Origin: Eledone cirrhosa
Taxonomy: Eukaryota
Direction of reading: 5' to 3'
Length of the DNA stretch: 64,000 nt
NCBI GenBank assembly: GCA_964016885.1
Contig: OZ024740.1
Span: 58,280,001 to 58,344,000 of the forward strand
Shown: positions 330-52,563 of the stretch, in pieces
How positions within the stretch are numbered: position 1 is the stretch's first letter
Layout of the letters: each line of letters begins with the position of its first letter
Translations under genes and position numbers: made by a program
Notes under the pieces: generated by a model
What the model was told of the DNA's origin: nothing
The model's database searches: none
Seen by the model: only the letters and a program-made list of their open reading frames with translations

Positions 330-424
<95 letters not shown>

Positions 425-722
425 TCATCATCATCATCATCACCGTTTTACGTCCGTTCTTCCACGCTAGCATGGGTTAGACGGGTTGTCCTGTTGTGGG
501 CAGTGTCTGGTCGGCTGACCATGCCTTGCTCATACAGGAACTGATCTGGCTTGATTTCTACAGCTGGATGCCCTTCCTAACACCAACCTCATTTACAGTG
601 AGTGCTGGGTGCTTTTTCGTGGCGCCTACACGTCCACTTTACAGTGTGGGCTGGGTGCTTTTTTGCCGTGGCACCTCCACGACCACCTTGCGGTGGGGGG
701 GGGGGCATATTGTTTATATGCT

Positions 723-3700
723 TCAGCATGTACCCATGGGAGGTCGGGTACCCTGTATTACTGCGTGACGCCAGAAGTCACGGTCGTGTGTCATTGACTT
801 TGAGAGGTGTAGTTGGGTAAGGTCGGCTTTTATCACCTCATCCCAAGTCATCTTGGGTCTCCCCACTCCGCGGTTTCCATCAACTTCTAGTGCTCTGCAC
901 CTTTTTATGCAGCTGTCATCCTTCATACGCATCACATGTCCATACCAGCGTAACCGCCTCTCCTGCACGCAGCATTTGATTCCTCTTATGCTCAGTCTCT
1001 CTCTCAATTCATTTATGCTTTGTCGTTCACGTATATTACTGTTACACATCCATCGGAGCATGCAGGCTTCGTTTCTCTCTAATCTACGTAAGTCTTCCAC
1101 CTTCAGCGCCCAGGTCTCACTACCATGCAACATCGCTGTTCGGATACACGCATCATACAGTCTGCCTTTCATTCTGAGGGAGAAGCCTTTTGCAGCTAGC
1201 AGTGGTAGTAGTTCCCTAAACTTCTTCCATCCCGTTCTTACCCTAGTTATTGTACTTTCTGAGCACCCACCTCCGTTGCTAATTCGGTCACCTAGGTAGC
1301 AGAAGCTGTCTACTGTTTCTACAGGGCCCTCCCAGAGATTGGTGGTACTTGTTTCCTGTGGCTGTTTGCTTGCTGTTTCAGCACAGCTGCTGCATGTGAA
1401 TCCTACATTCTTAATTAAGCTTCCTGAGATCCCGCTACATCTCTTGTGTACCCATTGTTTGCATTTGGGGCAAAGAATGGAGTTCCTACCTACACCTTTC
1501 CTACATACTGAGCAAGGCCATTTCCCTGAGGGGATCTGGGTTCTGTTTTCTCGTCTACTTATAAGGACCTTAGTCTTTGTCATGTTGACTTTGAGGCCCT
1601 TTCTCTCTAGTCCCTGCTTCCAGGTTTGGAATTTATTCTCTAGTTCTACCATAGATTCAGCTATGAGTGCGAGGTCATCAGCATACAGGAGTTCCCATGG
1701 GCATCCGGTCTTAAACTCCTCCGTTATTGCCTGCAGGACTATGATGAACAGGAGAGGGCTAAGAACAGAGCCCTGGTGGACCCCAACCTGTACGCTAAAT
1801 TCCTCGCTATACTCATTGCCAATCCTAACTTTGCTGACTGCTCCCCTATACATGGCTTGTACCGCTTTCACAAGCCATTCATCTACTCCTAGTTTTCTAA
1901 GAGCCCACCAGATTACTGCACGTGGAACTCTGTCAAAGGCTTTCTCAAGGTCGACAAATGCCAAGTAGAGTGGCTTACTTTTAGCTAGGTACTTTTCCTG
2001 TAATTGCCTCACAAGGAAGAGCGCATCAGTGGTGCCTTTCCCTGGAACAAACCCAAATTGCATCTCGTCTATATTCACCCGGTCCCTAATCAGCTGTGCT
2101 ATAACTCTTTCTGTTACTTTCATGACCTGGTCCATCAACTTTATACCTCTATAGTTTCCTCTATCTAGTGCATCGCCTTTACCTTTGTAGCAGTTGACAA
2201 TGATGCTACTGCACCAATCTTTTGGTATGGCCCCCTCTAGTATTACCTGGTTAACGATACGTGTGGTTATAGTGTGACCTACAGACCCAGATGCCTTCAG
2301 CATCTCGGCAGCTATACCCGATGGACCGGTTGCCTTCCCTATCTTCATATCTCTGATTGCCTTACTTACTACGCTGCCGCTGACTTGTACTGCTGGTCCC
2401 TCTATAGGGTCTACGTGGGGTAGGGTCTCTTCTTCCCATGCATTCTCCTCATTTAGTAATCTATCATAATGACTCTTCCATGCATCTTTCTTCTCAGCAC
2501 TTGTGAGGGCAAGCTCACCTTTATCATTCCGGATACACTTCTCTCCAATGACATCACAACTATCTCTGACACACTGCCTCGCAATCTTGAATACCTCCTG
2601 TTTCTGGTCCTCACGTTGTAAAACATGCTTGAATTTTCTATCCTCTGCTTCCCTCCTAGCTAAGTATACTTGTCGCCTAGCTTCCCTCTTGGTCTCTATG
2701 TAATGTACCCTGCTCCCCCCGTTCTTCCATTCTTTCCATGCCTGTCTCTTGGCCTTGACTGCTTCATCTACCTTATTGTTCCACCACCAAGTCACTCTCC
2801 TCCTGCTTGAGGTCTTACTCCAGCCACAAGCCTCATCCGTCGCCTCTAGTAAGTTATTTTTTAGGAACTCCCAGTTCTCTTCTACGTTAAATGTCTCTAT
2901 CTGTTCTTCTTTACTGTCGTAGGCGTTGAGTAAAATATCTTTAAATCTGTTACTGGTTGAGGGGACTTTCAGCTTCCAGATCTTTCTCCTCCAGGTTGGC
3001 CTCTGTTTCAGGGCTCGCCTAGTTCTGACCGTGAGGTCGCTGACAACTAAGCTATGTTGGGATGTACATTCCTCACTAGGGAAGGCTTTTGTGTTTACGA
3101 CCGTCCATCTGTCACGTCCTCTGATGAGGATAAAATCTAACTGACTAGAGTGCTCCCCTGATCTATAGGTGATCAGGTGGTTGTCGGGTTTTTTAAAGTT
3201 TGTGTTACATATCGACATGTCATTGGCGTCGCAGAATTCTAGAAGTCTGAATCCTTCCTCATTCCTTGTGCCAACTCCATGGCCTCCATGTACTCTATTG
3301 AAGCCGTCGCAGTGTTTACCTACGTGTCCGTTAAAATCTCCTGCAATGATTAGGAAGTCCTTGTCGTCTGTTAGAGCAGTAGTGTGTATTAGGGACTCGT
3401 AAAACCTATCCTTAAGTTCGTCTGGCAGCCCCGATTGGGGTGCGTAAGCTGATATTATTGTGGTAATTGTCTTATTCAGGACTAGTCTGAGTTTAATGAT
3501 TCTTGCATTTACCCTGTACACTGAGATTACTTTATCTACCCACTTGTCAGCTAATAGTATACCTACACCACCCATCCCATCGTCATTTCCCACCCAGAAA
3601 AATTTGTAGCACTGGCTTTTTCCTACAAGGACTCTAGCAGACCCTCCTCTCCATCTAGTCTCTTGCACACAGCATACATCAACTTCCTTTCGCTCTAGCA

Positions 3701-3842
3701 TTTCTACGATTTCTCCTGCTCTTCCTTTCATTGAGCCTACATTGATGGTACCAACTCGGAGTTTTGGGCATTTGTCGACACTCGTAGGGGAGGGTCTCTG
3801 GGTTGGCGCTTCACGTGGGTGCTTGGTAGCTCGCAGATTCAT
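723..3842 (-). CDS. RTE LINE polyprotein: APE endonuclease + reverse transcriptase with inserted PHD-type zinc finger (1039 aa, uninterrupted)
   Basis: APE motifs GTINV, VQETRW, YAPQ, GDFNGHVG, LDFI and SQHSLV. RT motifs NYRGIKL, QFGF, FVDLEKAFDRV, GVHQGSVLSPLLF, YADD and FCYLG. RTE-type C-terminus RLRWYGHVMRM...GRPKMTW. Confidence 0.96.
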   Translation of the reverse strand: MNLRATKHPREAPTQRPSPTSVDKCPKLRVGTINVGSMKGRAGEIVEMLERKEVDVCCVQETRWRGGSARVLVGKSQCYKFFWVGNDDGMGGVGILLADKWVDKVISVYRVNARIIKLRLVLNKTITTIISAYAPQSGLPDELKDRFYESLIHTTALTDDKDFLIIAGDFNGHVGKHCDGFNRVHGGHGVGTRNEEGFRLLEFCDANDMSICNTNFKKPDNHLITYRSGEHSSQLDFILIRGRDRWTVVNTKAFPSEECTSQHSLVVSDLTVRTRRALKQRPTWRRKIWKLKVPSTSNRFKDILLNAYDSKEEQIETFNVEENWEFLKNNLLEATDEACGWSKTSSRRRVTWWWNNKVDEAVKAKRQAWKEWKNGGSRVHYIETKREARRQVYLARREAEDRKFKHVLQREDQKQEVFKIARQCVRDSCDVIGEKCIRNDKGELALTSAEKKDAWKSHYDRLLNEENAWEEETLPHVDPIEGPAVQVSGSVVSKAIRDMKIGKATGPSGIAAEMLKASGSVGHTITTRIVNQVILEGAIPKDWCSSIIVNCYKGKGDALDRGNYRGIKLMDQVMKVTERVIAQLIRDRVNIDEMQFGFVPGKGTTDALFLVRQLQEKYLAKSKPLYLAFVDLEKAFDRVPRAVIWWALRKLGVDEWLVKAVQAMYRGAVSKVRIGNEYSEEFSVQVGVHQGSVLSPLLFIIVLQAITEEFKTGCPWELLYADDLALIAESMVELENKFQTWKQGLERKGLKVNMTKTKVLISRRENRTQIPSGKWPCSVCRKGVGRNSILCPKCKQWVHKRCSGISGSLIKNVGFTCSSCAETASKQPQETSTTNLWEGPVETVDSFCYLGDRISNGGGCSESTITRVRTGWKKFRELLPLLAAKGFSLRMKGRLYDACIRTAMLHGSETWALKVEDLRRLERNEACMLRWMCNSNIRERQSINELRERLSIRGIKCCVQERRLRWYGHVMRMKDDSCIKRCRALEVDGNRGVGRPKMTWDEVIKADLTQLHLSKSMTHDRDFWRHAVIQGTRPPMGTC

Positions 3843-4160
3843 ATTTCATCTATTGATTCAGAGTTGCTCGTGTATTCCCAGCTCATCCATCCATAACGGT
3901 GGGAAAATTGAGGGCTAGAAGGACAGTGGTGGTGGGGTAATGGCAGGGTGTGTTGGGATGCGCCAGAGGAGGAGAGAGTTAGTTAGGCAGGTAGTAGCAG
4001 CAGCAGCAGTGGAAATGGCATGCTAGGTTTGATTGGTCGAATAGACTATGGTGGTGTGTGGGGGTGGGGGGGAGGGAAATTGTGAGGTAGGAACTGAGGG
4101 TCGCATGGTAAATATCCAAGTTAATACTACATCAGTAAAATTAACAATAATAACGTCATG

Positions 4161-4453
4161 AAAAAAGCTACTAAGAGAAACCCTCGAAAATTTATCGCTA
4201 ATACAGCAGGGAAAATTTAACGCTAATACAGCAGGGAACATCATAATATTAACGACATGAAAAAGCTACTAAGAGAAACCCTCGAAAATTTATCGCTAAT
4301 ACAGCAGGGAAAATTTAACGCTAATACAGCAGGGAACATCATAATATTAACGACATGAAAAAGCTACTAAGAGAAACCCTCGAAAATTTATCGCTAATAC
4401 AGCAGGGAAAATTTAACGCTAATACAGCAGGGAACATCATAATATTAACGACA
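4161..4453. repeat. Three tandem 98-bp units upstream of the LINE ORF, with a fourth partial unit at ~4765-4833
   Basis: GCTACTAAGAGAAACCCTCG recurs at 4167, 4265 and 4363 (period 98). Each unit contains CGCTAATACAGCAGGGAA twice. Confidence 0.93.
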
Positions 4454-4830
4454 ATATGTAGGCTAAAATACCTTCGTAGATTAGGTGGATGGCTGGCTGG
4501 GAAAATTTGGATCAGCTCTACTGGTACATTTTAGCAGAGAAGAATGGCAAAGTGTCTTATCTCTTCAATATTTTCAGATTGAATGAATTAGGTTAAAGAC
4601 AGGGTAGTAAGCCTTAAAGAAGTGCATAGAGGGGGGGGGGGGGTAGGAACTGAGGGTCGCATGGTAAATAACTGAGAGAGATACAATAGGATTAGAATAC
4701 CGCATGGTAAATATCCAAGTTAATAAGTTAATACTACATCAGTAAAATTAACAATAATAACGTCATGAAAAAAAGCTACTAAGAGAAACCCTCGAAAATT
4801 TATCGCTAATACAGCAGGGAAAATTTAACG

Positions 4831-4864
<34 letters not shown>

Positions 4865-5066: not shown

Positions 5067-5675
5067 ATGAGACAGGTTGTACTGGGATACATGTTACCAT
5101 CAGCACCAACTGGTGACCTACATGGTCGGGTCGTTGGCGACTAAACTGGCAACCCCACCAAGGTTTCTTGGTGAGGAGGGTGACTTTAGACATCCTGCAG
5201 GACTAAAAACAAAACCTGTCAAAGGGCAAAGGAGCTCTTAAGAGTCAATGGCCATCCAAAATCACCGGGAGAGATGACCCCTTAGCCTTTGTCAAGGCAG
5301 AATTCTAGGAGAAGGAAAACTCTGATATAACACCTGCAACCCTGATGGTATCCAATGATGTTGACTTGTTCTTCTTTTTGGTAAATAGCATCTTGGTTAA
5401 GAGAGTGGGACTGGCTTTGTGCAGTGCCTTTGCTCACTATGAAAGCTTCACGGCACAGGCATTGCTTTATATCTGGAGATCTCTCTGCACTTGTCGTCAG
5501 ATGGTACCATGGGCCCAGCACTATGTGTCAATAATTGTCACAAGTGTAGTGTTTGTATCAGAGTTTTCAAGTCGCCGGCTGGACTAAAATGTCACACTCG
5601 TTCAGCGCATCGGTAGGGGTTCTCCTACATGGATATAAAGTAGTGGCCGTACTCGAAAACGAGTTGGCAGCCACC

Positions 5676-5677
<2 letters not shown>
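5067..5677 (+). mobile_element. Non-autonomous bipartite RTE-derived retroelement, copy 1, with 5' inversion
   Basis: RTE 5'-UTR-like motif CTAGGAGAAGGAAAACTCTGA. The 3' part encodes a C2H2 remnant CSVCIRVFKSPAGLKCHTRSAHR* followed by a short UTR. Five copies are present in the window. 5067-5120 is inverted relative to copy 5. Confidence 0.8.
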
Positions 5678-5852: not shown

Positions 5853-7072
5853 TTAAAATTAACCTGGCTAAGACTAAAGTTCTAGTTTGTAGGAAAGAAA
5901 ATATGGCGGCAGTCCCATCTGGGAAATGGCCATGCTCAGTGTGTAGGAAAGGCGTAGGTAGAAACTCCATTTTATGTCCCAAATGCAAAGTATGGGTGCA
6001 TAAAAGATGTAGTGGGATCACAGGTAAGCTAACTAAGAACATAGATTTTACATGTGGCCGGTGCTCTGGTGCAATAAGTAGCAGCAAGTGCCCACAAAAT
6101 ACTAGCTCCTTCAACTGCGCAGAGGGTTCTATAGAAATAGTGGACAGCTTCCGTTACCTGCGTGACAAAATCAGCAGTGGGGGAGGGTGCTCTGAAAGTA
6201 CAGTAGCTAGAGTCAGAACTGGATGGAAAAAGTTCAGAGAGCTTATACCACTATTAGCCGCTAGAGGGTTCTCCCTAAAAATGAAAGGCAGGTTATACGA
6301 TGCCTGCATACGAACAACAATGCTGCATGGCAGCGAGACCTGGGCATTGTGTGCAGAGGATATACGCAGACTAGAGAGGAACGAAGCTTGCATGCTCCGC
6401 TGGATGTGCAATAGTAATATACGTGAACGGCAAAGCATAAACGAACTAAGGAAAAAATTAGAAATAAGAGGGATCAGATGTTGTTTACTCGAGAGAAGGC
6501 TACGTTGGTACGGTCACGTGATGCGCATGAAAGACAACAGCTGTATAACAAAGTGCAGGGCAATAAAGATAGACGGTAGCCACGGAGTAGGCAGACCCAG
6601 AAAAACATGGGACGAGCTGATAAATTCCGACCTCACACGCTTACACCTCTCCAAGACAATGTCACTGGACCGAGACCTTTGGCGGTACTCAGTAATAGAG
6701 AAGACCCGCCTTACCTAAATACAAAGTAAAAACCTACTACAGTCAGTAGGCATCTCTATCAACCCTTTCAATGTACAGTTATGTTGGTCCCACAACATCC
6801 ATGCCGAAACAAATGAGATCGTGTAGGTGTCACGACAAAAAACACACAGTCCACGCTGTAAATGTGGCCGTGTAGGCAACACGGTAAAAACCTCCCAGCC
6901 CCACACTGTAAATGTGGTTGGTGTTAGGAAGGGCATCCAACTGTAGAAAACCCGCCAGACAGTCCTATGCGAGCAAGACAACCACTCTTGCCTCAAGTGG
7001 GAAAACCCCTGTCCAAACCCATGCAAGCGTGGAACACGGACGCTAAACCTGATGATGATGATGATGATGATG
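5853..7072 (+). mobile_element. 5'-truncated RTE LINE, subfamily B
   Basis: The frame to 6718 encodes the RT C-terminal part with the PHD finger (KINLAKTKV...WPCSVC...RLRWYGHVMRM). It has a 3' UTR and a (GAT)n tail at 7050-7072. Confidence 0.92.
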
Positions 7073-7073
7073 T

Positions 7074-9443
7074 TCATCATCGTTTAACGTCCGTGTTTGA
7101 CGCTTGCATGGGTTTGGACGGGGGTTTTCCCACTTGAGGCAAGAGTGGTTATCTTGCTCGCATAGGACTATCTGGCGGGTTTTCTACAGCTGGATGGCCT
7201 TCCTAACACCAACCACATTTACAGTGTGGGGCTGGCAGGTTTTTACCGTGTTGCCTACACGGCCACATTACAGCGTGAACTGTGTGTTTTTTTGTCGTGA
7301 CACCTACACGATCTCATTTGTTTCGGCCTGGATGTTGTGGCACCAACATAACTTTACATTGAAAGGGGCAGTGTGGATGGGGTGGGGGTGGTGGGACGGG
7401 GGTGTATTTCGTTAGAGATGCCTACTGACTGTAGTAGGTTTTACTTTGTATTTAGGTAAGGCGGGTCTTCTCTATTACTGAGTACCGCCAAAGGTCTCGG
7501 TCCAGTGACATTGTCTTGGTGAGGTGTAAGTGTGTGAGGTCGGAATTTATCAGCTCGTCCCAGGTTTTTCTGGGTCTGCCTATTCCGTGGCTACCGTCTA
7601 TCTTTATTGCCCTGCACTTTGTTATCCAGCTATCGTCCTTCATGCGCATCACGTGACCATACCAACGTAGCCTTCTCTCGAGTAAACAACATCTGATCCC
7701 TCTTATTTCTAATTTTTTCCTTAGTTTGTTTATGCTTTGCCGTTCACGTATATTACTATTACACATCCAGCGGAGCATGCAAGCTTCGTTTCTCTCTAGT
7801 CTGCGTATATCCTCTGCACACAATGCCCAGGTCTCACTGCCATGCAACATTGCTGTTCGTATGCAGGCATCGTACAACCTGCCTTTCATTTTTAGGGAGA
7901 ACCCTTTAGCGGCTAATAGCGGTATAAGCTCTCTGAACTTTTTCCATCCAGTTCTGACTCTAGCTACTGTACTTTCAGAGCACCCTCCCCCACTGCTGAT
8001 TTTGTCACCCAGGTAACGGAAGGTGTCTACTATTTCTATAGAACCATCTGGGCAATGAAAAGGAGCTAGTATCCTGTGGGCACTTGCTACTTATTGCACC
8101 TGAGCACCACTCATATAAAATATATGTTCTTAGTTAGCTTACCTGTGATCCCACTACATCTTTTATGCACCCATACTTTGCATTTCAGACTCAAAATGGA
8201 GTTTCTACCTACGCCTTTCCTACACACTGAGCATGGCCACTTCCCGGAGGGGACCGCAGCCTTATTTTCTTTCTTACAAACTAGAACTTTAGTCTTAGCC
8301 AGGTTAATTTTAAGTCCTTTTGATTCTAGGCCGTGCTTCCATGTTTGGAATTTCTTCTCTAGCTCGGCCATTGATTCAGCTATGAGCGTTAGATCATCTG
8401 CGTATAGGAGTTCCCATGGGCAGCCGGTCTTGAACTCCACTGTTATAGCCTGAAAGGCAATAATAAATAGTAGGGGGCTAAGAACAGAGCCCTGATGAAC
8501 ACCAACTTTTACGCTAATCTCTTCACTATATTCGTTGTTAATTCTAACCTCGCTGACTGTTTCTTTATACATGGCTTGTATAGCTCTCACAAGCCATTCA
8601 TCAACACCTAGTTTTCTAAGAGCCCACCAGATAATGGAACGGGGGACTCTGTCGAAGGCTTTCTCCAAGTCAACGAAAGCTAAGTATAGGGGTTTACTTT
8701 TAGCTAGGTACTTCTCCTGTAGTTGTCGTACAATGAAAAGAGCGTCTGTGGTACTTTTGCCTGACACAAACCCGAACTGCATTTCATCTAGATCAATTCT
8801 CTCTCTGATTAGTTGCGCTATTACTTTTTCCGTGACCTTCATGACCTGGTCGATTAATTGAGTGCCTCTATAGTTACTCCTATCTAGGGCATCTCCTTTA
8901 CCCTTATAACAGTTAACGATGATGCTGTCTTTCTCCCATTTATTCCCCTCATGTAGTAGCCTTTCATAGTGACACTTCCAAGCTACCTTCTTATCAGCAT
9001 CGGTGATGGCAAGTACGCCGTCATCATTAAGTACACACTTCTACCCGACAATATCACGGTTTTCCTTGACACATTGCCTAGCAATCCTGAACACCTCACG
9101 TTTTTGGTCCTCGCGTTGTAGAACATGCTTGAACTTTCTTTCCTCTGCTTCCCTTCTTGCGAAGTACACTTGTCTGCTAGCCTCCCTCCTGGCCACTTGA
9201 TAGTCTTCTCTGCTTCCCCCATCCCGCCATACTTTCCAAGCCTGCTTTTTGGCCTTAATTGACCTCTCCACCTTACTGTTCCACCACCATGTTACTCTCC
9301 TCCTGCCTACAGGCCTGCTCCAGCCACAGACTTCGTCTGCCGCCATCAGCAAGTTTGCTTTCAGGAATTCCCTCTGTTCCTCTACCTTGTACGACTCTAA
9401 TTGCTCTTCCTTACTGTCGAAAGCATCAAGTAGTATACTTTTG
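7074..9443 (-). mobile_element. 5'-truncated, frameshifted, internally deleted RTE LINE, subfamily B
   Basis: ORF pieces 7452-7889, 8111-8842 (YADD) and 9041-9443 are homologous to the 1039-aa ORF. There is a deletion near 8925. The 3' UTR matches the + copy at 6719-7050. Confidence 0.92.
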
Positions 9444-9455
9444 ATATATATATAT

Positions 9456-11078
9456 ATCATCATCATCATCATCATCACCGTTTTACGTCCGTTCTTCCAC
9501 GCTAGCATGGGTTAGACGGGTTGTCCTGTTGTGGGCAGTGTCTGGTCGGCTGACCATGCCTTGCTCATACAGGAACTGATCTGGCTTGATTTCTACAGCT
9601 GGATGCCCTTCCTAACACCAACCTCATTTACAGTGAGTGCTGGGTGCTTTTTCGTGGCGCCTACACGTCCACTTTACAGTGTGGGCTGGGTGCTTTTTTG
9701 CCGTGGCACCTCCACGACCACCTTGCGGTGGGGGGGGGGGGGCATATTGTTTATATGCTTCAGCATGTACCCATGGGAGGTCGGGTACCCTGTATTACTG
9801 CGTGACGCCAGAAGTCACGGTCGTGTGTCATTGACTTTGAGAGGTGTAGTTGGGTAAGGTCGGCTTTTATCACCTCATCCCAAGTCATCTTGGGTCTCCC
9901 CACTCCGCGGTTTCCATCAACTTCTAGTGCTCTGCACCTTTTTATGCAGCTGTCATCCTTCATACGCATCACATGTCCATACCAGCGTAACCGCCTCTCC
10001 TGCACGCAGCATTTGATTCCTCTTATGCTCAGTCTCTCTCTCAATTCATTTATGCTTTGTCGTTCACGTATATTACTGTTACACATCCATCGGAGCATGC
10101 AGGCTTCGTTTCTCTCTAATCTACGTAAGTCTTCCACCTTCAGCGCCCAGGTCTCACTACCATGCAACATCGCTGTTCGGATACACGCATCATACAGTCT
10201 GCCTTTCATTCTGAGGGAGAAGCCTTTTGCAGCTAGCAGTGGTAGTAGTTCCCTAAACTTCTTCCATCCCGTTCTTACCCTAGTTATTGTACTTTCTGAG
10301 CACCCACCTCCGTTGCTAATTCGGTCACCTAGGTAGCAGAAGCTGTCTACTGTTTCTACAGGGCCCTCCCAGAGATTGGTGGTACTTGTTTCCTGTGGCT
10401 GTTTGCTTGCTGTTTCAGCACAGCTGCTGCATGTGAATCCTACATTCTTAATTAAGCTTCCTGAGATCCCGCTACATCTCTTGTGTACCCATTGTTTGCA
10501 TTTGGGGCAGAGAATGGAGTTCCTACCTACACCTTTCCTACATACTGAGCAAGGCCATTTCCCTGAGGGGATCTGGGTTCTGTTTTCTCGTCTACTTATA
10601 AGGACCTTAGTCTTTGTCATGTTGACTTTGAGGCCCTTTCTCTCTAGTCCCTGCTTCCAGGTTTGGAATTTATTCTCTAGTTCTACCATAGATTCAGCTA
10701 TGAGTGCGAGGTCATCAGCATACAGGAGTTCCCATGGGCATCCGGTCTTAAACTCCTCCGTTATTGCCTGCAGGACTATGATGAACAGGAGAGGGCTAAG
10801 AACAGAGCCCTGGTGGACCCCAACCTGTACGCTAAATTCCTCGCTATACTCATTGCCAATCCTAACTTTGCTGACTGCTCCCCTATACATGGCTTGTACC
10901 GCTTTCACAAGCCATTCATCTACTCCTAGTTTTCTAAGAGCCCACCAGATTACTGCACGTGGAACTCTGTCAAAGGCTTTCTCAAGGTCGACAAATGCCA
11001 AGTAGAGTGGCTTACTTTTAGCTAGGTATTTTTCCTGTAATTGCCTCACAAGGAAGAGGGCATCAGTGGTGCCTTTCC
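9456..11078 (-). mobile_element. 5'-truncated RTE LINE, subfamily A (near-identical to 421-2041)
   Basis: ORF 9760-11078 gives the same protein as the C-terminal part of 723-3842. It has the same 3' UTR and (GAT)n tail. Confidence 0.96.
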
Positions 11079-11543
11079 ACATACATATATATATATGTAT
11101 GTGTATATGTGTGTGTATAATTGTATACGTTTGTGTGTGCGTGTTTGTGCATGTATTTGTGTATGTGTATGTATGTGTTTGTATATGTATATTTATGTGT
11201 GAGAGTGTGTATGTATTTACTATTTCCTACATATGTATACGTGCATTTGTGTGTATTACTTACCACGCGTGTCTGTTAATCTACCCGCCGTTTGTATCGC
11301 TGTCAACTCTATAATAATCTTTATTATTATTTTATTTTTTTTATATATATTTTTTTTTATATTTATTTGCATGTGTGAATATGTAGAGGAGTGTATATTT
11401 TTCTAATTTTGTACATGTATATGTACGCATTTATGTATGTGTATGTATGTACGTGTGTATATATGTATGATTGTGTGTATGTATGTATGTATGTATATGT
11501 ATGTGTGCATGGCTATGATTGTGTATGTGTATGCATGTACATA

Positions 11544-12083: not shown

Positions 12084-12384
12084 AGTGTGTATGTATGCTT
12101 TTGTGTGTGTGTGTGTGTGTTTGCATGTGTGGTTTTATTTTATTTTTATTTTCCTTTCTCCGGCCTCACTTTCATATAGATTGCATTTTTGTTTTTTAAA
12201 ATCCAAATTCAATAAACAGACCAGGATTTTTTCATTCTTAGGATTGAAAGCAAAATCTTTTGCTTTTAAGAAACCACTGGTAAATGGAATAATTGCCTTA
12301 TGTTGTTTATTACATAACTATTAAGCTCTGTTACCTACATAGAGCACTCTTTTTTCCTGGACTTTTCCGACGGAATTACTTCAC

Positions 12385-12431
<47 letters not shown>

Positions 12432-12436
12432 CATAC

Positions 12437-12477
<41 letters not shown>

Positions 12478-12525
12478 GCATGCATGCATGCATGCATACA
12501 TACATACATACATACATACATACAT

Positions 12526-13440
12526 CTCTCACCCAGAGAAATCGGAAGATCCTATTCAATGTTCAAACAAGATAAAAAAATTGACCAATTTACAGAAAAA
12601 GTTGTGCATGTATACTTGTGGTGTAAAACACAGACCATAGAGGGGATAAACCACTCAAAAAGCCTGGCATGGAGTTCCGACAAGTCTATGACATCACACC
12701 TTGAGGGATATCTCTATGCAATACAGGAACAAGAACTCCCTACCAAATATCTGCTGCACAAAAGAGGAGGGCCAGCAGCTGACAATAAATGTAGGCTATG
12801 TAAAACAAAGATCGAGGATGTAAGCCACATTGTTGCCAGCTGCGAAAGAATGTCATCTCGCTACTACCTCCCCATGAGACACGATGGGATAGCTAGAACC
12901 ATCTGGAATGCACTTCGGAAAACAAAATTAACAAACGAGGAAGAATATATTGAGACAGATGGCACTAAGGAATACTGGTGGAACCTGAAAATAAAAACTG
13001 CCACCAAATTAAAACACAACCGGCCTGATATTGTAGTTTGGGATCACACATTGGAAACGTGTTCTGTTGTGGAGATCAGCTGCCCACTTGATGTAAACGT
13101 TGTCAGAAAAATACAGGAGAAGGAGGACATCTACGGACCATTGATGAGGAATTTACAAATCCAGTATCCAAGATACACCTTTAGCTTCATACGCATCATT
13201 ATTGGTGCTACGGGTTATATACCAACCCGCTTGGACCAAAGTATGACTGAACTTGGATTTGTGGACAAAAAGCGCAGCTCCCTAATTCATAGTCTACAAA
13301 TGGCTGCGATAGCTGGCACCTTCAAAATTTGCAAAACATTCTTGCGATTCAAGGGATGACAATTTCTTTTCTTTTACAACCTTGCCACCAGGAAGGTGGC
13401 CGGTCAAAAAAATATACTCGAAATTAAGAGAAAGAGAAAA
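12526..13440 (+). mobile_element. 5'-truncated R4/Dong-like non-LTR retrotransposon (restriction-like endonuclease)
   Basis: Open frame to 13359 with EGYLYAIQEQ, CCHC knuckle CRLC-x8-H-x4-C, RHD, and RPD..E..K nuclease motifs. It has an ~80-bp 3' UTR and is flanked on both sides by (TACA)n. Confidence 0.88.
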
Positions 13441-13489: not shown

Positions 13490-13636
13490 ATGGTGGCTGC
13501 CAACTCATTTTCGAGTACGACCACTACTTTATATTCATGTAGGAGAACCCCTACCGATGCGCTGAACGAGTGTGACTTTTTAGTCCAGCCTGCGACATGA
13601 GAACTCTGGTACAAACACTACACTTGTGACAATTAT
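13490..13636 (-). mobile_element. Bipartite RTE-derived element, copy 2 (3' end only)
   Basis: Matches the reverse complement of ~5531-5677. Has an (ATGT)n tail. Confidence 0.85.
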
Positions 13637-14626: not shown

Positions 14627-15151
14627 ATGGTGGCTGCCAACTCGTTTTCGAGTACGGCCACTACTTTATATCCATGTAGGAGAACCCCTACCGATGCGCT
14701 GAACGAGTGTGACTTTTTAGTCCAGCCAGCGACTTGAAAACTCTGGTACAAACACTACACTTGTGATAATTAGAGCAGAGAGATCTCCAGATATAAAGCA
14801 ATGCCTGTGCCGTGAAGCTTTCATAGTGAGCAAAGGCACTGCACAAAGCCAGTCCCACTCTCTTAACAAAGATGATATGTACCAAAAAGAAGAACAAGTC
14901 AACATCATTGGATACCATCAGGGTTGCAGGTGTTATATCAGAGTTTTCCTTCTCCTAGAATTTTGCCTTAACAAAGGCTAAGGGGTCATCTTTCTCGGTG
15001 ATTTTGGATGGCCATTGTCTCTTAAGAACTCCTTTGCCCTTTGACAGGTTTTGTTTTTAGTCCTGCAGGATGTCCAAAGTCACCCTCCTCACCAAGAAAC
15101 CTTGGTGGGGTTGCCAGTTTAGTCGCCAACGACCCGACCATGAGACAGGTT
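14627..15151 (-). mobile_element. Bipartite RTE-derived element, copy 3
   Basis: Matches copies 1 and 5, with a ~40-bp internal deletion near 14772. Flanked by TA/TACA repeats. Confidence 0.88.
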
Positions 15152-15770
15152 ATATATGCATATATATACATATACACATACATATACATATATATACACA
15201 TATACATATATATACTCATACACAGATATTCACATACATATACATATATACACATATATACCCTTTCTAGCAGTCTCTCTCTCTGTTAGCCTCTTCCTCA
15301 CCCTTCACTCACTCATTCTCTGTCACTACCTCTCCTCCTCCTCTTTCTTCCCGTTTGACCTGTGAGTAATTCTTTTCTCTCACATTCTCGGCCAAGCTGG
15401 TCGGAATTTTTTCTCTCTCTACGATTTCACAGAACTTATGTTTACCGAATTCGCAGACCAGACCCCTTCTTCCTCCCGTTAGACCTGTGCAAAATTCCTT
15501 CCTTGCTCACATTTCAACCAGGTTTGATGGTCTTTATTCTCTCGTTCACGATTTCACCGAACTTAAATTCATAGAAATCTGGGACTTGTCTCTTTCTTCC
15601 TCACTTTCTGTTGCTCCACCATTTTGTTTGTTTACCCTCGCGTCCCCTTTATTTACGTGTCCCAACGACTTTTTTTAGCCGTTGCTCGCACCAACCGGAG
15701 GTATATGGTCTTTAAAGCGATGAAATGCCTATGATAGTTGGAAGATCACTGATGAAGGACAAACTTTTTT

Positions 15771-16518: not shown

Positions 16519-16929
16519 ATGGTGGCTGCCAACTCGTTTTCGAGTACGGCCACTACTTTATATCCATGTAGGAGAATTCCTACCGATGCGCTGAACGACT
16601 GTGACTTATTAGTCCAGCCAGCGACTTAAAAACTCTGGTACAAACACTACACTTGTGACAATTATTGACACATGGTGCTGGGCCCATGGTACCATATGAC
16701 GAGAAGTGCAGAGAGATTTCCAGATATAAAGCAATGCCTGGGCCGTGAAGCTTTTATAGTGAGCAAAGGCACTGCACAAAGCCAGTCCCACTCTCTTAAC
16801 CAAGATGATATTTACCAAAAAGAAGAACAAGTCAACATCATTGGATACCATCAGGGTTGCAGGTGTTATATCAGAGTTTTCCTTCTCCTAGAATTCTGCC
16901 TTGACAAAGGCTAAGGGGTCATCTCTCCC
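16519..16929 (-). mobile_element. Bipartite RTE-derived element, copy 4 (5'-truncated)
   Basis: Matches copy 5. The two are head-to-tail, separated by a short (TACA)n run. Confidence 0.88.
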
Positions 16930-16945
16930 TTACATACATACATAC

Positions 16946-17541
16946 ATGGTGGCTGCCAACTCGTTTTCGAGTACGGCCACTACTTTATATCCATGTAGGA
17001 GAACCCCTACCGATGCGCTGAACGAGTGTGACTTTTTAGTCCAGCCAGCGACTTGAAAACTCTGGTACAAACACTACACTTGTGACAATTATTGACACAT
17101 AGTGCTTTGCCCTTGGTACCATGTGACGAGAAGTGCAAAGAGATCTCCAGATATAAAGCAATGCCTGTGCCGTGAAGCTTTTATAGTGAGCAAAGGCACT
17201 GCACAAAGCCAGTCCCACTCTCTTAACCATGATGATATTTACCAAAAAGAAGAACAAGTCAACATCATTGGATACCATCAGGGTTGCAGGTGTTATATCA
17301 GAGTTTTCCTTCTCCTAGAATTCTGCCTTGACAAAGGCTAAGGGGTCATCTCTCCCAGTGATTTTGGATGGCCATTGACCCTTAAGAGCTCCTTTGCCCT
17401 TTGACAGGTTTTGTTTTTAGTCCTGCAGGATGTCCAAAGTCACCCTCCTCACCAAGAAACCTTGGTGGGGTTGCCAGTTTAGTCGCCAACGACCCGACCA
17501 TGGGACAGGTTGTACTGGGATACATGTTACCAGTAGCACCA
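16946..17541 (-). mobile_element. Bipartite RTE-derived element, copy 5 (longest colinear copy)
   Basis: The minus strand starts GGTGCTACTGGTAACATGTATCCCAGTACAACCTGTCCCATGGTCGGG and ends GCAGCCACC(ATGT)n. Confidence 0.88.
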
Positions 17542-17563
17542 CATACATGCATACATACATACA

Positions 17564-17616
<53 letters not shown>

Positions 17617-17627
17617 TGATGTGATTC

Positions 17628-17905
17628 CTCAGACTGGGTGATGTGTTGTTTCCTTGAGCAAGACACTTTATTTCACATTGCTCCAGTTTACTCAGCTGTA
17701 GAAATGAGATGATAGGGACTGGGGTCACTATCATTCCATTGCAAAGTGGTCGTGGAGGTACTACGGTAAAAAAGCACCCAGCACTCACTGTAAATGAGGT
17801 TGGTGTTAGGAAGGGCATCCAGCTGTAGAAATCAAGCCAGAATCAGTTCCCATCCCACCCTTGCAAGCAGGGAAAAGCGGACGTAAAATGATGATGATGA
17901 TGATG
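17628..17905 (+). mobile_element. 5'-truncated CORE-type SINE with RTE-derived tail
   Basis: Same CORE-like and tail sequence as 28586-28909. Ends in (GAT)n. Confidence 0.8.
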
Positions 17906-28585: not shown

Positions 28586-28909
28586 ATCATCATTTTACGT
28601 CCGCTTTTCCCTGCTTGCAAGGGTGGGACTGATTCTGGCTTGATTTCTACAGCTGGATGCCCTTCCTAACACGAACCTCATTTACAGTGAGTGCTGGGTG
28701 CTTTTTTGGCGTGGAACCTCCGCGACCACTTTGCAGTGGAATGATATGGACCCCAGTCATATCATCTCATTTCTACAGCGGAGTAAACTGGAGCAATGTG
28801 AAATAAAGTGTCTTGCTCAAGGAAACAACACATCACCCGGTCTGAGAACTCAACTCACAACCTTTCGATTGCAAGGCCAATTCTCTAACCACTAAGCCAT
28901 GTGCCTCCA
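28586..28909 (-). mobile_element. Full-length CORE-type SINE with RTE-derived tail
   Basis: tRNA-like head TGGAGGCACATGGCTTAGTGGTTAG, CORE-like middle and RTE tail. About 23 bp of the 5' end are duplicated just downstream at ~28925-28947. Confidence 0.85.
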
Positions 28910-33559: not shown

Positions 33560-35158
33560 TGCACATTCATTACTGGTGCCATGATGAAGTTCCTTCTCCA
33601 GCTTACCCTGTCTAGCATTGCCATGTGAAGTTCCCTTGCCTCCATTCCAGTGTCTTCTTCAAGAACATCCTCCAGTATGATGTTTGGTTTCTCAACTTAT
33701 GTGCATACATCTGGTTTCCAGAAAAGAACTCTGCCAGCAGGTTCATTGTGACATTTCACATGTCCAGCTAATGCGAGTCTCCTTCACCTTATTATGTGAG
33801 AAAGGCAAGGATTTACACCATAGAGCAGTTTATTTGCTACGTGTATTTTCCAGGATATGCTCAGGATCTTTCTCAACATTCACGGCAATGTGACATTGAT
33901 CTGCTTGAGTGATTTTGTTAATGTCCATGACTCATATCCATAGAGGAGAATGGGCTCGACTATTGCTTTGAATAGCATCATATTCATAGTTTTCTTGGTT
34001 GGAGACATCCACACCTTTGATAGGGAGTTGAGAGCGCTCAATGGAACTGCCAAGGAATACAGAGATATCTACTTTTTCAATTGTCAAACTGTCTAATGCA
34101 TGCAATTGGTCGTTTTATGTTGCACTGAAATGCATGAATTTTGTTTTGTTAGCATTCAAGAAGAGTCCAATTGACTGTGCTACAACCTCCACTCTGTGTA
34201 ACATGTCCTCAGCTTCTTTGCTGGTGTTTTCCAAGAGAGCTATGTCATCTGCATAAGCTAGTTTGGTTACAACTTCCTCCAGATGTTGGGTATTTTGCAT
34301 AATCAAGGTATATCACAAAAAAGGAAGGAGGCAGAGGATCTCTCTGGGGACTCTGGTAGCTATGGAGAATAAGTATGTTTTCTTTGTGTGTTATTACAAG
34401 TGCTGAAGTACTCTCTTATACATGACTTTAATTGCATTCACAATCTGATGAGATATCTCTTATGCAAACAGAATTTTTGAGCACCTTCCAGTTGATTGAA
34501 TCAAAAAGTCTTGAAATCTATGAATACAATTACTACCATCTTCTTGTGATTCTGTACTTCCTCAACAATCCTTCTTCAAACCAAAATATGTGAGGTTGTA
34601 GAGAGCAACATAGCTAAAAACCCCTTTCAACTGGAATGTAAAATGTTGTTAATACATCGTCTGATTCTATTCAGTATCATCCTATTTGAATTCTTTGCTG
34701 CTATTTGTGTAAGACTGATGGCTCTATAGTTGGTGCAGATGGTGATGTTACCTTTCTTGGGTATTGCCACTATTCCTGATATTCCCCATTCCTTCAAAGG
34801 TTTCAATGTAGAAATTTCTTTTAAAATGTTCATGGTTTGAGTAGTTTCCATAGGTCTAGAGTTAGGCCATGAAGCCCAAGAGCTTTACCTAATTTCATTG
34901 CCTTTAGTGCATTATTCACTTCTATAGAGAATTCAATGATGCTTAATCTCTAGGTGGACTTCAAATGCTGGGTCAAGCACTTTATCTGGCTCACAATGAT
35001 TGTCATCTGTGAAGAGTTTGTGAAAGGGCTCCCTCCAAGTTTGATGACAGATGTCCCCTTGGATATATATCACACTCTTCCTCTTCCTAATAGAAAGTTC
35101 TTTTATTAGTTTCCAAGATTCTCTGGGGCTGTTGTTAATATTCTCAAAATCAACCTGC
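33560..35158 (-). mobile_element. Old APE-type LINE (RTE/RTEX-like), RT half
   Basis: IPKKGN..NYRAISLTQIAAK and LAYADDIALL...IGLFLNANKTKFM, with many stops and frameshifts. Confidence 0.8.
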
Positions 35159-36698
35159 AAAGCTCATATCAGCTAGATTTTTCTGGCCAAATATGAGGCG
35201 TGAAATTGCTGCTTGGTGCCGTTCCTGCGTCGCTTGCCAGAGATCAAAGGTCCATCGACACGTCAAGGCTCCCCTGGGTACCTTTGCTAACCCAGATGCG
35301 CGTTTTTCACATATTCATATTGACATAGTGGGACCTTGGCCTGTCAGCGATGGTTTTTCTTATCTGCTGACCGTCATTGACCGTTTTTCGAGATGGCCTG
35401 AGGCCATCCCCTTGAAAAACATCACCGTGGAGACAACAGCACGTGCTCTTGTGTCTGGATGGATCTCTCGTTATGGAGTTCCATCCACAATAACTACCGA
35501 CCGTGGACGACAGTTCGAGTCAAGCCTTTTCCTCGAGCTGTCAAAATTAATTGGTGCTAAACGCATTAGAACTACGGCGTACCATCCCGCTTCGAATGGT
35601 ATGGTGGAGCGTTTTCACCGACAACTGAAGGCCTCCTTAATGGCCTCAATGGACTCGGCGCATTGGAGCGAGTACCTCCCTATTGTGCTACTAGGGATTC
35701 GGTCAACGGTGAAGGTCGACTTTGGATTTTCACCGGCCGAAGTACTGTACGGTGCCCCTCTGACGTTGCCCAGGCAAATGCTTGCCCCTATCGATCTTGA
35801 TGCCCAAGATCACGCTTCCTACGTGTCCCATTTGCGCTCCTATTTCCAGGATTTGCCGCCAATGGACACTAGGAAACAAACTGTCCAGACTGCTGTCCCG
35901 AGGGATATTGCCTCGTGGACGCATGTCTTTGTAAGGAAAGATTCTGTGAAGCCTCCGCTCACACAGCCTTACACTGGACCTTACCGTGTCTTAGCGCGCT
36001 CGGCTAAGCATTTCACATTAGATATTAAGGGGTCCAGAGAGACAGTTACAATAGACAGGCTTAAGCAGGCACACCTTGACACAGACGCTGTGGTTCCTGA
36101 TCCACGAACCCCTTCGCATTTGCCTGTTGAGCGAACGCCTGTTCCTGAACCACCATCATCGCCTGTCCCTACACCACCACCATCGCCACGTTACAAGACC
36201 ACAACCCGTTCAGGTCGTAGGGTTCACTGGCCCAAAAAATTTTGCAGCACCGTCTATATTTAGACTATGTTAGCTGCACCTTTTTTTTGCCTCTGTGTTT
36301 CTGCTTTTTCTTTGCCTTGTTTTTTATGCATGCATGTTGTTTTTTTTTTAACATTTTTCAAATCCTTATTCTGGATTCAATTTTTGGTAGAGCGAATAGC
36401 TCCCCCTTGTTGCATTGTTCGCCATCTTACTCCACATGTGAGTAATGACATCGATTTTCGATGATTTGAAAATCTGGCAGGGGGTACTGTAGTAAGACGC
36501 CTCACACCTCTTGATAGAACAACGCTGGTTGAGAACGCGAGAAAAAAAACAGACAGCCACTGGAAAGCAGACTGATCACACGCCAGAAACCATCCTCTGT
36601 ACCACACCATTGTTTGTGCTACATCAAAAATAAACATATATTTCATCTCTAATTTCTGCTGTTGAAATCATTATTATGTCACTCGTGTCTCAATAACA
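35159..36698 (+). mobile_element. Ty3/gypsy LTR retrotransposon 3' fragment (integrase, PPT, 3' LTR)
   Basis: Integrase ORF, purine tract GGCAGGGGG at ~36476-36484, then an LTR TGT...ACA at 36488-36698 containing AATAAA. Confidence 0.88.
35193..36263 (+). CDS. Ty3/gypsy integrase (3' part of pol, lacking its own start)
   Basis: CRSCVACQ (end of HHCC), [29 protein letters not shown] (DD35E) and PYTGPY (GPY/F). The frame extends upstream as [11 protein letters not shown]. Confidence 0.92.
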
Positions 36699-50888: not shown

Positions 50889-51277
50889 ATCATCATCACC
50901 GTTTTACGTCCATTCTTCCACGCTAGCATGGGTTAGACGGGTTGTCCTGTTGTGGGCAGTGTCCAGTCGGCTGACCATGTCTTGCTCATACAGGAACTGA
51001 TTCTGACTTGATTTCTACAGCTGGATGCCCTTCCTAACACCAACCTCATTTACAGTGTGGGCTGGGTGCTTTTTTGCCATGGCACCTACACGTCCACTTT
51101 GCAGTGGAATGATAGGAACCCCAGTCCTATCATCTCTTTTCTACAGCTGAGTAAACTGGAGCAATGTGAAATAAAGTGTCTTGCTCAAGGAAACAACACA
51201 TCACCCGATCCGAGAATTGAACTCACAACTACTCGATTGCAAGCCCAATGCTCTAACCACTAAGCCATGTACCTTCA
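50889..51277 (-). mobile_element. Full-length CORE-type SINE carrying the subfamily-A RTE 3' UTR
   Basis: 50889-51100 aligns with the LINE 3' UTR at ~433-680. tRNA-like head with A and B boxes. Confidence 0.88.
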
Positions 51278-51300: not shown

Positions 51301-52563
51301 CAGGGTGCGGACGATATTTGTTCGCAAGATTACTGTCTAGGAAAAAATAACACAGTAGTTTTATTTTTTAAGATATATTTATCAAACTTGGGTCAGTTTG
51401 TCTTCATGACTTGTTCTTTCGATCTCACTCGATAAACCCGCCATTGGCTTTGATGACGGCCTCAAGGCGGCTTCGGAACTGGCTACAGGCCTTCGTCACT
51501 GTCCCCCGACTTAGGCCCCTAAAGGCACTTGTGATCCTGGCTTTCAGATCGTCTTTCGTATTGCAGCTAGATCTGTTGGTGTCTCGTTCCACTGCGCCCC
51601 ACACAAAGAATTCGAGGGGGTTGCAGTCAGGCGAGCTGAGAGACCAAATGTCAGGTGAAGTGTGGTCGACGAAGTTCTCTGACAGCCAGGCTTGGGTCTT
51701 TCAGCTGGTATGGCAGGGCGCTGAGTCTTGCTGCCACAAATACGGCCTACCTGCAGCTACCTGGTCGATCCAGGACTTTATTACCTCGCTCAGAACGCGG
51801 ATGTAGCCATCGGTGTTCAGGATGAGGCCCTCAGGGAAGAAGTGAGGTGGCATGACGTCACCTTGACTGCTGATGACACCTAAGACCAATGTTGTCGCTG
51901 GAAACTTTGCATGTATCTGGGCACGTCTATGGATGAGACAGCGAGCCACCTGTTGTTCTGGGAGTTGATCTTCTGGTCCTGGCTCCAGTGGGTGTTTCAA
52001 CTTGTTGATCAGCTTCTTTGCGTGCTTCAGTCGCTTTTCTTGCATAGTCTTTGACAGAAATTGTCCTTTCCTCATCTTGTATGAAATGTAGCGAATGTCT
52101 TCATGTACCCTCAGCCTAATGAGCTTTTTATCCACGCCTTTCTCCCTTGCAAGGGCATGCATCGACTTGCTAGGTTCATTGTTGATGATATCCTGAACTT
52201 CAGCGATGAACTCGGGCGTTCTGAAGGCGTCAGATCGTCGATCATGTGTTTTCCTCTCCGATGTTGCTTCGTAGTCGAATCCTGAATCTTCCAATTCCTT
52301 TCTGACCTTTTCCACCATTCTCCTGCTGATGCTGAGAAAGTCTGAAATTTCCTTATTTGTCCTCCCGGCGCGGATTCCAAGAAGAACTCCGTGTCTCTTC
52401 CACAAATTTGGAGGTTCAAAATTATTCATAATCAATTATTCTGAAAATAAATAATGGAAATATAGTCACTGTTTTTATGAAGACAAGAGTGACAACGGAA
52501 GTAAAAAAAAATTTGCATAAAATTAGCAGTTGAAAATTGCGAACAAATATCGTCCACACCCTG
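51301..52563 (-). mobile_element. Tc1/mariner-superfamily DNA transposon, maT (DD37D)-like, defective
   Basis: 27-bp TIRs CAGGGTG(C/T)GGACGATATTTGTTCGCAA with 1 mismatch, flanked by TA on both sides. Confidence 0.92.
51425..52435 (-). pseudogene. maT-like transposase pseudogene
   Basis: HTH region, GDVMPPHFF, WQQDSAPCHTS*, then in-frame SPDCNPLEFFVWG...KANGGFIE. There is an in-frame stop at 51701, and the first catalytic-Asp region appears deleted or frameshifted. Confidence 0.85.

Follow-up and report, generated by a model that had tools for sequence, protein, structure and literature searches.

The short retroelement family N1 in the genome of Eledone cirrhosa carries at its 5' end an RNA head that, judged by model matches and predicted pairing, quite probably folds as a class 1a exoribonuclease-resistant RNA (xrRNA). 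N1 is a ca. 610-nt bipartite non-autonomous RTE element, represented by five damaged copies with a common 3' end in the window, that is, the whole stretch of 64,000 nucleotides analyzed here (assembly GCA_964016885.1, contig OZ024740.1, positions 58,280,001 to 58,344,000, forward strand). The first ca. 60 nt of the element, its true head, match the class 1a xrRNA of flaviviruses. We propose that a host 5'-3' exonuclease would trim read-through transcripts back to this knot, in place of a promoter or a ribozyme, and assign this reading a probability of roughly 0.55.

N1 copies and the autonomous element RTE-A

All five copies listed in the preliminary description (at 5067, 13490, 14627, 16519 and 16946) were recovered with one shared 3' end and show 90-98% identity to the full-length copy L025 (Table 1). 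Their variable 5' truncation was likewise confirmed, with starts at element positions 15, 42, 200 and 464, while the 5067 copy carries an inverted head instead. The 16946 copy had been taken to hold the 5' end of the element. It lacks the first 14 nt and the 3-nt leader TAT, and its xrRNA-like head is thus incomplete. The inverted segment at 5067-5123 (first 56 nt) contains nearly the whole xrRNA-like domain, and nothing else in the window preserves a trace of the true 5' end. Because no window copy has an intact head, the 5' end could only be guessed in the preliminary description.

Table 1. Positions of N1 copies in the window and of the parts of the 16946 copy
Feature	Position	Strand	Remarks
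N1 copy	16946..17541	-	element positions 15-610; 97.7% to full-length copy L025
3' tail common with autonomous RTE-A	16946..16979	-	85% over 33 nt
C2H2 zinc-finger remnant and stop codon of donor ORF	17007..17078	-	
RTE 5'-UTR-derived middle	17158..17364	-	conserved domain motif at 17298-17318
Hairpin CACCAAG/CTTGGTG	17448..17466	-	changes compensated in family N3
Second module (P1.1/P4/J4-2/P2 of the preliminary description)	17474..17498	-	predicted H-type pseudoknot, GTCG/CGAC and TYGG/CYGG
Variable 3-nt linker, then CATG as 3' strand of predicted PK2	17499..17505	-	
Junction CA (predicted PK1 partner of 5' TG) and 3' strand of P1 (ACCTG)	17506..17512	-	
P3 hairpin TACTGG/CCAGTA, 6 bp, 11-nt loop	17513..17535	-	
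Loop CATG, 5' strand of predicted PK2	17523-17526	-	in P3 hairpin; its A-U pair is the predicted triple partner
P2, 3' strand (GGTG), with the one unpaired junction C at 17536	17536..17540	-	
Tandem neighbor N1 copy	16519..16929	-	5'-truncated at element position 200
N1 copy	14627..15154	-	5'-truncated, starts at element position 42; 41 nt deleted internally
N1 3' fragment	13490..13636	-	from element position 464
N1 copy	5121..5677	+	element positions 54-610
Inverted head of 5067 copy	5067..5123	-	94.8% over 58 columns

One exact 36-mer of the N1 head has 11,071 matches in the 3.0-Gb genome and its reversed control has none. Thirty N1 loci taken in genome order show a median identity of 97.7% to their majority sequence and are mostly 604-609 nt long. 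The (ATGT)n and (AT)n runs previously described as tails lie on either side of the element and are mostly target sequence, with duplications that begin with AT. Analysis of N1 target duplications was mostly uninformative because the targets are microsatellites. Frequent among the copies are inversions at the 5' side and partial duplications of the head whose end coincides exactly with the start of the head; they are often joined by TAT or AT (window 5067-5123, loci L040, L068, L077 and others). Many N1 copies lie directly behind the tail of one other repeat (L098, L099, L101-L104), an insertion hot spot, and one where read-through transcripts would be available.

The view of N1 as a bipartite, tRNA-less and non-autonomous RTE derivative was borne out, as its 5'-UTR middle, zinc-finger remnant and tail all match one autonomous element, RTE-A, found beside N1 copies. 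RTE-A has one ORF encoding an endonuclease, a reverse transcriptase and three C2H2 fingers, with an unbroken frame of 1181 codons in L204 and 977 exact-motif matches genome-wide. The motif CTAGGAGAAGGAAAACTCTGA belongs to the conserved RTE 5'-UTR or Ceph domain given in the supplement of PMC5786205, and the stretch holding it aligns with the RTE-A 5' UTR over 229 columns at 70% identity. The C2H2 remnant (C-x2-C-x12-H-x4-H) is present and resembles the RTE-A fingers at 13/20 residues. This agrees with the donor being an RTE different from the local PHD-type one, which shares 26% protein identity with RTE-A and has a different tail. No tRNA genes were detected in the 5/5 full-length N1 loci scanned. 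Given the matches of 5' UTR, fingers and tail, N1 belongs with the bipartite non-autonomous RTEs treated in PMC5786205 (Bov-A, RTESINE1/2, WALLSI3, RTE-N2_Lch). With these it shares a 5'-UTR part joined to an ORF end and a tail, the conserved RTE 5'-UTR domain, target duplications and the lack of a tRNA head. It differs from the elements described there in that its head is an xrRNA-like fold and not a described ribozyme, and its direct autonomous parent was not found.

An autonomous RTE sharing both ends had been anticipated. RTE-A accounts for the UTR middle, finger and tail but does not carry the N1 head, since ORF-reaching copies have a different 1.7-kb leader (7/7). The head was joined to an ORF in none of these seven copies and in none of 20 further loci, two apparent cases being tandem insertions, and a search for an ORF-linked copy of the N1 finger gave only one match, a truncated N1 copy. 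N1 probably derives from a relative of RTE-A, and RTE-A probably mobilizes it, as judged from these shared parts. The RTE-A leader (L205, L206, L207) is ca. 1.7 kb long, rich in simple repeats and of fixed start, with a GT-AAGT donor-like motif ca. 45 nt in; this swapped 5' leader may be a captured host promoter or first exon. The N1 family may already be named in Repbase or Dfam, though probably without the xrRNA reading.

The window further contains a PHD-type RTE with an open frame of 1040 codons at 409-3845 (-), ca. 99-nt tandem repeats upstream of it (4102-4836) and further decayed PHD-type copies at 5855-11226. Another SINE-like repeat, whose tail region is common with the PHD-type RTE, is found at 17616-17895, 28586-28909 and 50990-51277, the first of these directly upstream of the 16946 copy. 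Three open frames we take to be parts of other mobile elements: one at 35139-36263 (+) resembling a Ty3/gypsy integrase, one at 51372-52435 (-) resembling a Tc1/mariner transposase remnant and one at 12343-13359 (+) resembling the restriction-like endonuclease end of a LINE.

The predicted xrRNA fold of the head

The best Rfam match on the N1 head was RF01415 (flavivirus SL-IV xrRNA), which covered the whole model with 23.4 bits (E 0.062), and the head of a second family, N3, reached 26.8 bits (E 0.012). Scores of 23-30 bits against RF01415 are below its gathering cut-off of 54.5 and amount to about half of it. When 64 of ca. 217,000 candidates were scored in a genome-wide RF01415 search at E<=10, three matches were kept (29-29.6 bits, E 6.6-9) and all three are heads of knot-headed families; below-cut-off matches also occurred in 7 of 14 control genomes. 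Compared with the printed RF01415 consensus, N1 is identical at 27/31 core positions and the four changes form two compensated C-G to U-A swaps. Rfam searches of the truncated window copy returned microsatellite noise only, and RF01415 was not listed for N2 when whole 3-kb loci were searched at E<=1. A possible likeness between the SRP Alu domain and the L3/P3 stretch was dropped, as it had no Rfam support on the N1 and N3 heads.

Subclass 1a xrRNA (RF01415; MVEV, ZIKV, Aroa virus) is the closest known fold, as far as the available parts of PMC4829329, PMC8374639, PMC8571300, PMC13161572 and PMC5760640 describe it. The viral fold and the predicted fold of the head have in common the three-way junction, a 5-bp P1, a variable P2, the single C, overall length, a 2-bp PK1, the bases of the U•A-U triple, a PK2 of 4-6 bp and a boundary 5 nt before P1. 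All features of the subclass (P1, P2, single C, PK1, triple bases, PK2) can be traced in the sequence of the head. In the viral members PK1 spans 1-2 bp and PK2, formed between L3 and the strand after P1, spans 2-7 bp. Lengths in the head differ by no more than 1 nt from those of the assayed Aroa virus xrRNA (57 and 58 nt, compared by eye; PMC13161572 supplement).

Junction P1-P2-P3 is both the minimum-energy and the centroid fold of the first 101 nt in the 2/2 copies folded at that length, while a rival long hairpin is preferred over it in windows of 116-146 nt. The folding energy of the head is ordinary (z -0.5 to -1.1). Two alignments of 17 and 16 rows, both consisting of hand-picked and related sequences, were used to assess the individual elements. 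The predicted 5-bp P1 is 100% paired in 16/16 and 17/17 rows, and the single junction C between P2 and P3 is invariant in the alignments. It is also invariant in majority sequences of copies that had been selected through motifs lying outside the domain (30 copies of N1, 30 of N3 and, for N2, 10 of 30 loci), in which P2 is rebuilt with fully complementary strands. PK1 is predicted as 2 bp of TG with CA, with no covariation seen. All three bases of the predicted U•A-U triple are invariant and at their consensus places. Predicted PK2, between the P3 loop and a strand 3 nt after P1, has 4 bp in N1, 5 bp in N2 and 6 bp in N3 with its core 95% paired, and the linker before its 3' strand (2-3 nt) is of fixed length and free sequence. 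Overall, the xrRNA model pairs 92.5% (17 rows) and 94.9% (16 rows) of cells compared with 23-47% when slid. Whole-structure covariation is modest in these related sequences, with 0/500 shuffles as good for 17 rows and 15/500 for 16 rows; the tertiary core shows no covariation of its own because it is invariant. A class 1a descriptor, written after the RF01415 match was seen, matched the N1 and N2 heads but 0/3000 and 0/600 shuffles. Applied to 850 kb of fetched loci, it yielded 140 matches, 133 of which were heads and 7 one microsatellite.

Mosquito-borne xrRNAs have only C-G pairs at the junction, according to the accessible text of PMC13161572. This rule does not hold for the head, where two of the three junction pairs are U-A in N1-N4 and N6 restores one. 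At P1 the junction pair is U-A in N1-N4; in N6, in which 5/7 copies keep the head, it is C-G in 3 of these and U-G in 2. Beyond these pairs, the head departs from viral 1a xrRNAs in its score below the Rfam cut-off, in its resistance being predicted and in its place at the 5' end of a chromosomal retroelement rather than in a viral 3' UTR.

The same head was found on further short families (N2, N3 with an unrelated tail, N4/N5 and N6), in which the fold is kept while the P2 stems differ; N3-N6 were found partly with patterns that fixed core letters. In total, five non-autonomous families retain the head, and their tails are of three kinds. P2 is rebuilt from family to family (CACC/GGTG, CACT/AGTG, CAGGC/GCCTG, CGCT/AGCG), as it is in viruses, and pairs poorly in the few N4/N5 copies seen. 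At L152, near 221.06 Mb, a ca. 59-nt N3 xrRNA-like unit forms a head-to-tail array of at least 11 units in 700 nt. The old family N3 (L170-L199) carries the Ceph-domain motif given in the available part of PMC5786205 behind a knot and not behind a tRNA head. Further, a high-depth contig of run X4, from another organism, shares the stretch from P3 to the second module and keeps CAGGT, with a longer, different P2 hairpin and a different downstream hairpin. Thirty letters of this variant head were seen, and it is absent from the present genome at <=2 mismatches. A metagenome scan for the element gave five GC-rich chance matches, none with the head, the viral contigs scanned contained neither the head nor an RTE relative, and the element was not found in any run recorded as RNA.

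Downstream of the head, the predicted H-type pseudoknot of the second module is 87% and 91% paired in the two alignments. It resembles the coremin xrRNA-C of beny- and cucumoviruses, as far as PMC6546385 and PMC10520033 could be consulted, in its GUC/GAC hairpin, the hairpin that follows and an AAAC spacer whose letters could pair with the preceding loop. It differs in its loop (UYGG instead of YGAD/YGNNAD), its spacer (AACYG instead of AACUA), the absence of the required U-A and the presence of 1 nt instead of 3 before AAAC. We thus rejected the second module as a coremin xrRNA-C by these published consensus letters, as loop and spacer consensus failed although the outline is alike.

The 5' boundary and its possible origins

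Of 49 sampled copies, 37 reach a common start at which TAT is followed by GTCAGG, and 34/37 of these have T at -1. Among 30 copies picked for non-microsatellite flanks from at least 55 listed, -1 is T in 29, -2 is A or G in 28 and -3 is T in 26, while -4 is random. Conservation therefore extends exactly three bases beyond the first G on its upstream side, to a point 5 nt ahead of P1 and 2 nt ahead of PK1. On mosquito-borne xrRNAs, Xrn1 halts 5-6 nt before P1 (PMC5760640, part available), and its halt site is placed two positions upstream of PK1 (PMC13161572, part available). The genomic 5' boundary of N1, read from aligned copies, thus fits the Xrn1 halt site of viral xrRNAs. The TAT leader may be target-derived or untemplated, because TAT is also the microsatellite target and the number of extra bases at clear N3 target duplications varies from 0 to 7.

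From the match to viral xrRNAs we infer the following sequence of events. N1 copies located in introns or behind other elements would be transcribed passively, with no promoter of their own. Debranching, decapping or cleavage would then let Xrn1/Xrn2 degrade the transcript from its 5' side until they halt 5 nt before P1 at the knot, which would leave a unit-length RNA. The protein of RTE-A or of a close relative would bind the shared tail and prime reverse transcription at AT-rich microsatellites, and the reverse transcriptase, arriving from the 3' side, would pass the knot. Passage of viral xrRNAs by reverse transcriptase from the 3' side is reported in the accessible text of PMC4829329.

The boundary was previously explained by an HDV-like ribozyme with CCAGT/ACTGG as P2, GTCG/CGAC as P4 and a catalytic C in CUAA, a proposal that now appears hardly tenable. 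Such a ribozyme has a 7-bp P1 that begins at the 5' G and whose 3' strand follows P3 immediately, and the proposal called for full-length copies starting at GACCATG, the P1 strand. They instead start with TAT followed by GTCAGGTCAC and have no strand complementary to CATGGTC at their start: GACCATG was found within 300 nt upstream in 0/30 loci, where the best G-started 7-mer had 2 mismatches in 28/30. In N1 alone P2 and P4 can pair, and CUAA is well conserved. Across the five families, however, the middle pair of P2 is broken in 9/16 aligned heads, and in every family CCAGT has a longer partner in cis, TACTGG, with which it forms P3 of the xrRNA model. The proposed P2 and P4 together pair 81% of cells in the 16 rows compared with 95% for the xrRNA model, and P4 alone pairs 79%. 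A P3/L3 together with P1.1 and a conserved P2 was not found, there being no room for P3/L3; no HDV-type family of Rfam matched the 16946 copy or the N1 and N3 heads; and a relaxed HDV descriptor gave 1-12 folds per head that differ by family, look chance-like and never start at the element end. It is the missing GACCATG strand, the broken P2, the longer CCAGT partner and these inconsistent descriptor folds that leave the HDV model unsupported. The underlying idea of promoterless release from read-through transcripts by a 5' RNA structure survives, with another structure and another mechanism. HDV-type heads do appear to occur on another short RTE of this genome: at L220:728-912 (-), such an element, different from N1, adjoins an N2 head fragment. 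RTE derivatives with ribozyme heads and others with knot heads thus seem to coexist in this genome. Below-cut-off Hammerhead HH9 matches (30.4 and 25.6 bits) were also seen at L060:69-139 and 406-438 (-). The head could also be an undescribed self-cleaving ribozyme cutting 3 nt upstream of the first G, which we consider very unlikely. The precise boundary and the conserved double-pseudoknot core would suit it, and RTE elements use HDV-like and twister ribozymes at their 5' ends, as covered in parts of PMC5786205 and PMC8501958. Against this, no ribozyme family matched the two full heads (N1, N3) at E<=10, and the xrRNA model already accounts for every conserved unpaired base. Mapping the head by eye onto a Perere-3 type twister (L1 UAA, P2, GUCCCAAGC loop pairing with GAGGG; Table 1 of PMC8501958) breaks at a variable linker base and would place the cut inside the element; this candidate was rejected, as the loop base varies between C, U, G and A across families and Rfam gave no match on the N1 and N3 heads.

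Two further explanations accept the knot but give it another role. If it merely stabilized or marked the RNA, the 5' end would be the transcription start of an internal promoter, which we regard as unlikely. Any fixed start would give a sharp boundary, the middle of the element retains the conserved RTE 5'-UTR domain, and transcription of bipartite RTEs is not understood according to the accessible text of PMC5786205. A start coinciding with the Xrn1 halt site would, however, be chance, the five full-length loci contain no tRNA-type promoter, and autonomous RTE-A has its different 1.7-kb leader. As judged from L1 elements, a copied cap would leave an excess of G upstream of the start; G at -4 is not in excess in N1 (5/30). 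Alternatively, the fold could be a signal by which the RTE protein recognizes or packages the RNA, acting at the template 5' end or in second-strand priming, with its likeness to xrRNA having no part in nuclease resistance. R2 proteins bind a 5' pseudoknot (available part of PMC6765202), partial duplications and inversions often end exactly at the head, and retention of the fold across the five families and three tails would be expected from such a signal as well. This explanation leaves the identity at unpaired tertiary positions of the viral fold unexplained, and ORF-bearing RTE-A copies lack the head, yet RTE-A has reached its 977 exact-motif copies, so that we judge it quite unlikely. Trimming to the knot by a host exonuclease remains the reading we prefer.

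Relation to known systems and implications

Ribozyme-headed non-LTR elements (HDV-like in R2, SIDE, L1Tc and RTE, PMC6765202; twister in Perere-3, PMC8501958; both sources in part) resemble N1, as proposed here, in that an RNA structure at the 5' end fixes where the element begins on read-through transcripts made without its own promoter. N1 differs from them in that no catalytic core was found, the boundary lies upstream of the structure and a 5'-phosphate is expected instead of a 5'-OH. It is the position of the boundary upstream of the structure that makes the head roadblock-like rather than ribozyme-like.

A stronger reading combines several claims: a working xrRNA that shares ancestry with its viral counterpart and passed between a virus and a retrotransposon, Xrn1/Xrn2 as the means of 5' maturation, a second coremin-like roadblock immediately downstream and the first endogenous eukaryotic xrRNA, present in more than ten thousand copies. 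We hold this combination tentatively, at somewhat less than even odds. Candidate origins are capture from a marine invertebrate flavivirus, the reverse, or convergence; a shrimp flavivirus has an Xrn1-stalling motif, as stated in the available part of PMC8632102. A 2021 review describes xrRNAs as characterized only in viruses and asks, in the part available, whether eukaryotic genomes hold any (PMC8374639). No xrRNA in a retroelement was described in the literature searched, which comprised listings and the beginnings of abstracts outside subscription journals. Element type and fold are each known, and their union is new within that literature.

If the head resists Xrn1, the question posed by the review would be answered. 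Besides promoters and ribozymes, non-LTR elements would then have a third means of defining their 5' end, and the traffic of RNA modules between flaviviruses and retrotransposons would become a question in its own right. For the host, the element would mean thousands of potential decay roadblocks in introns and UTRs.
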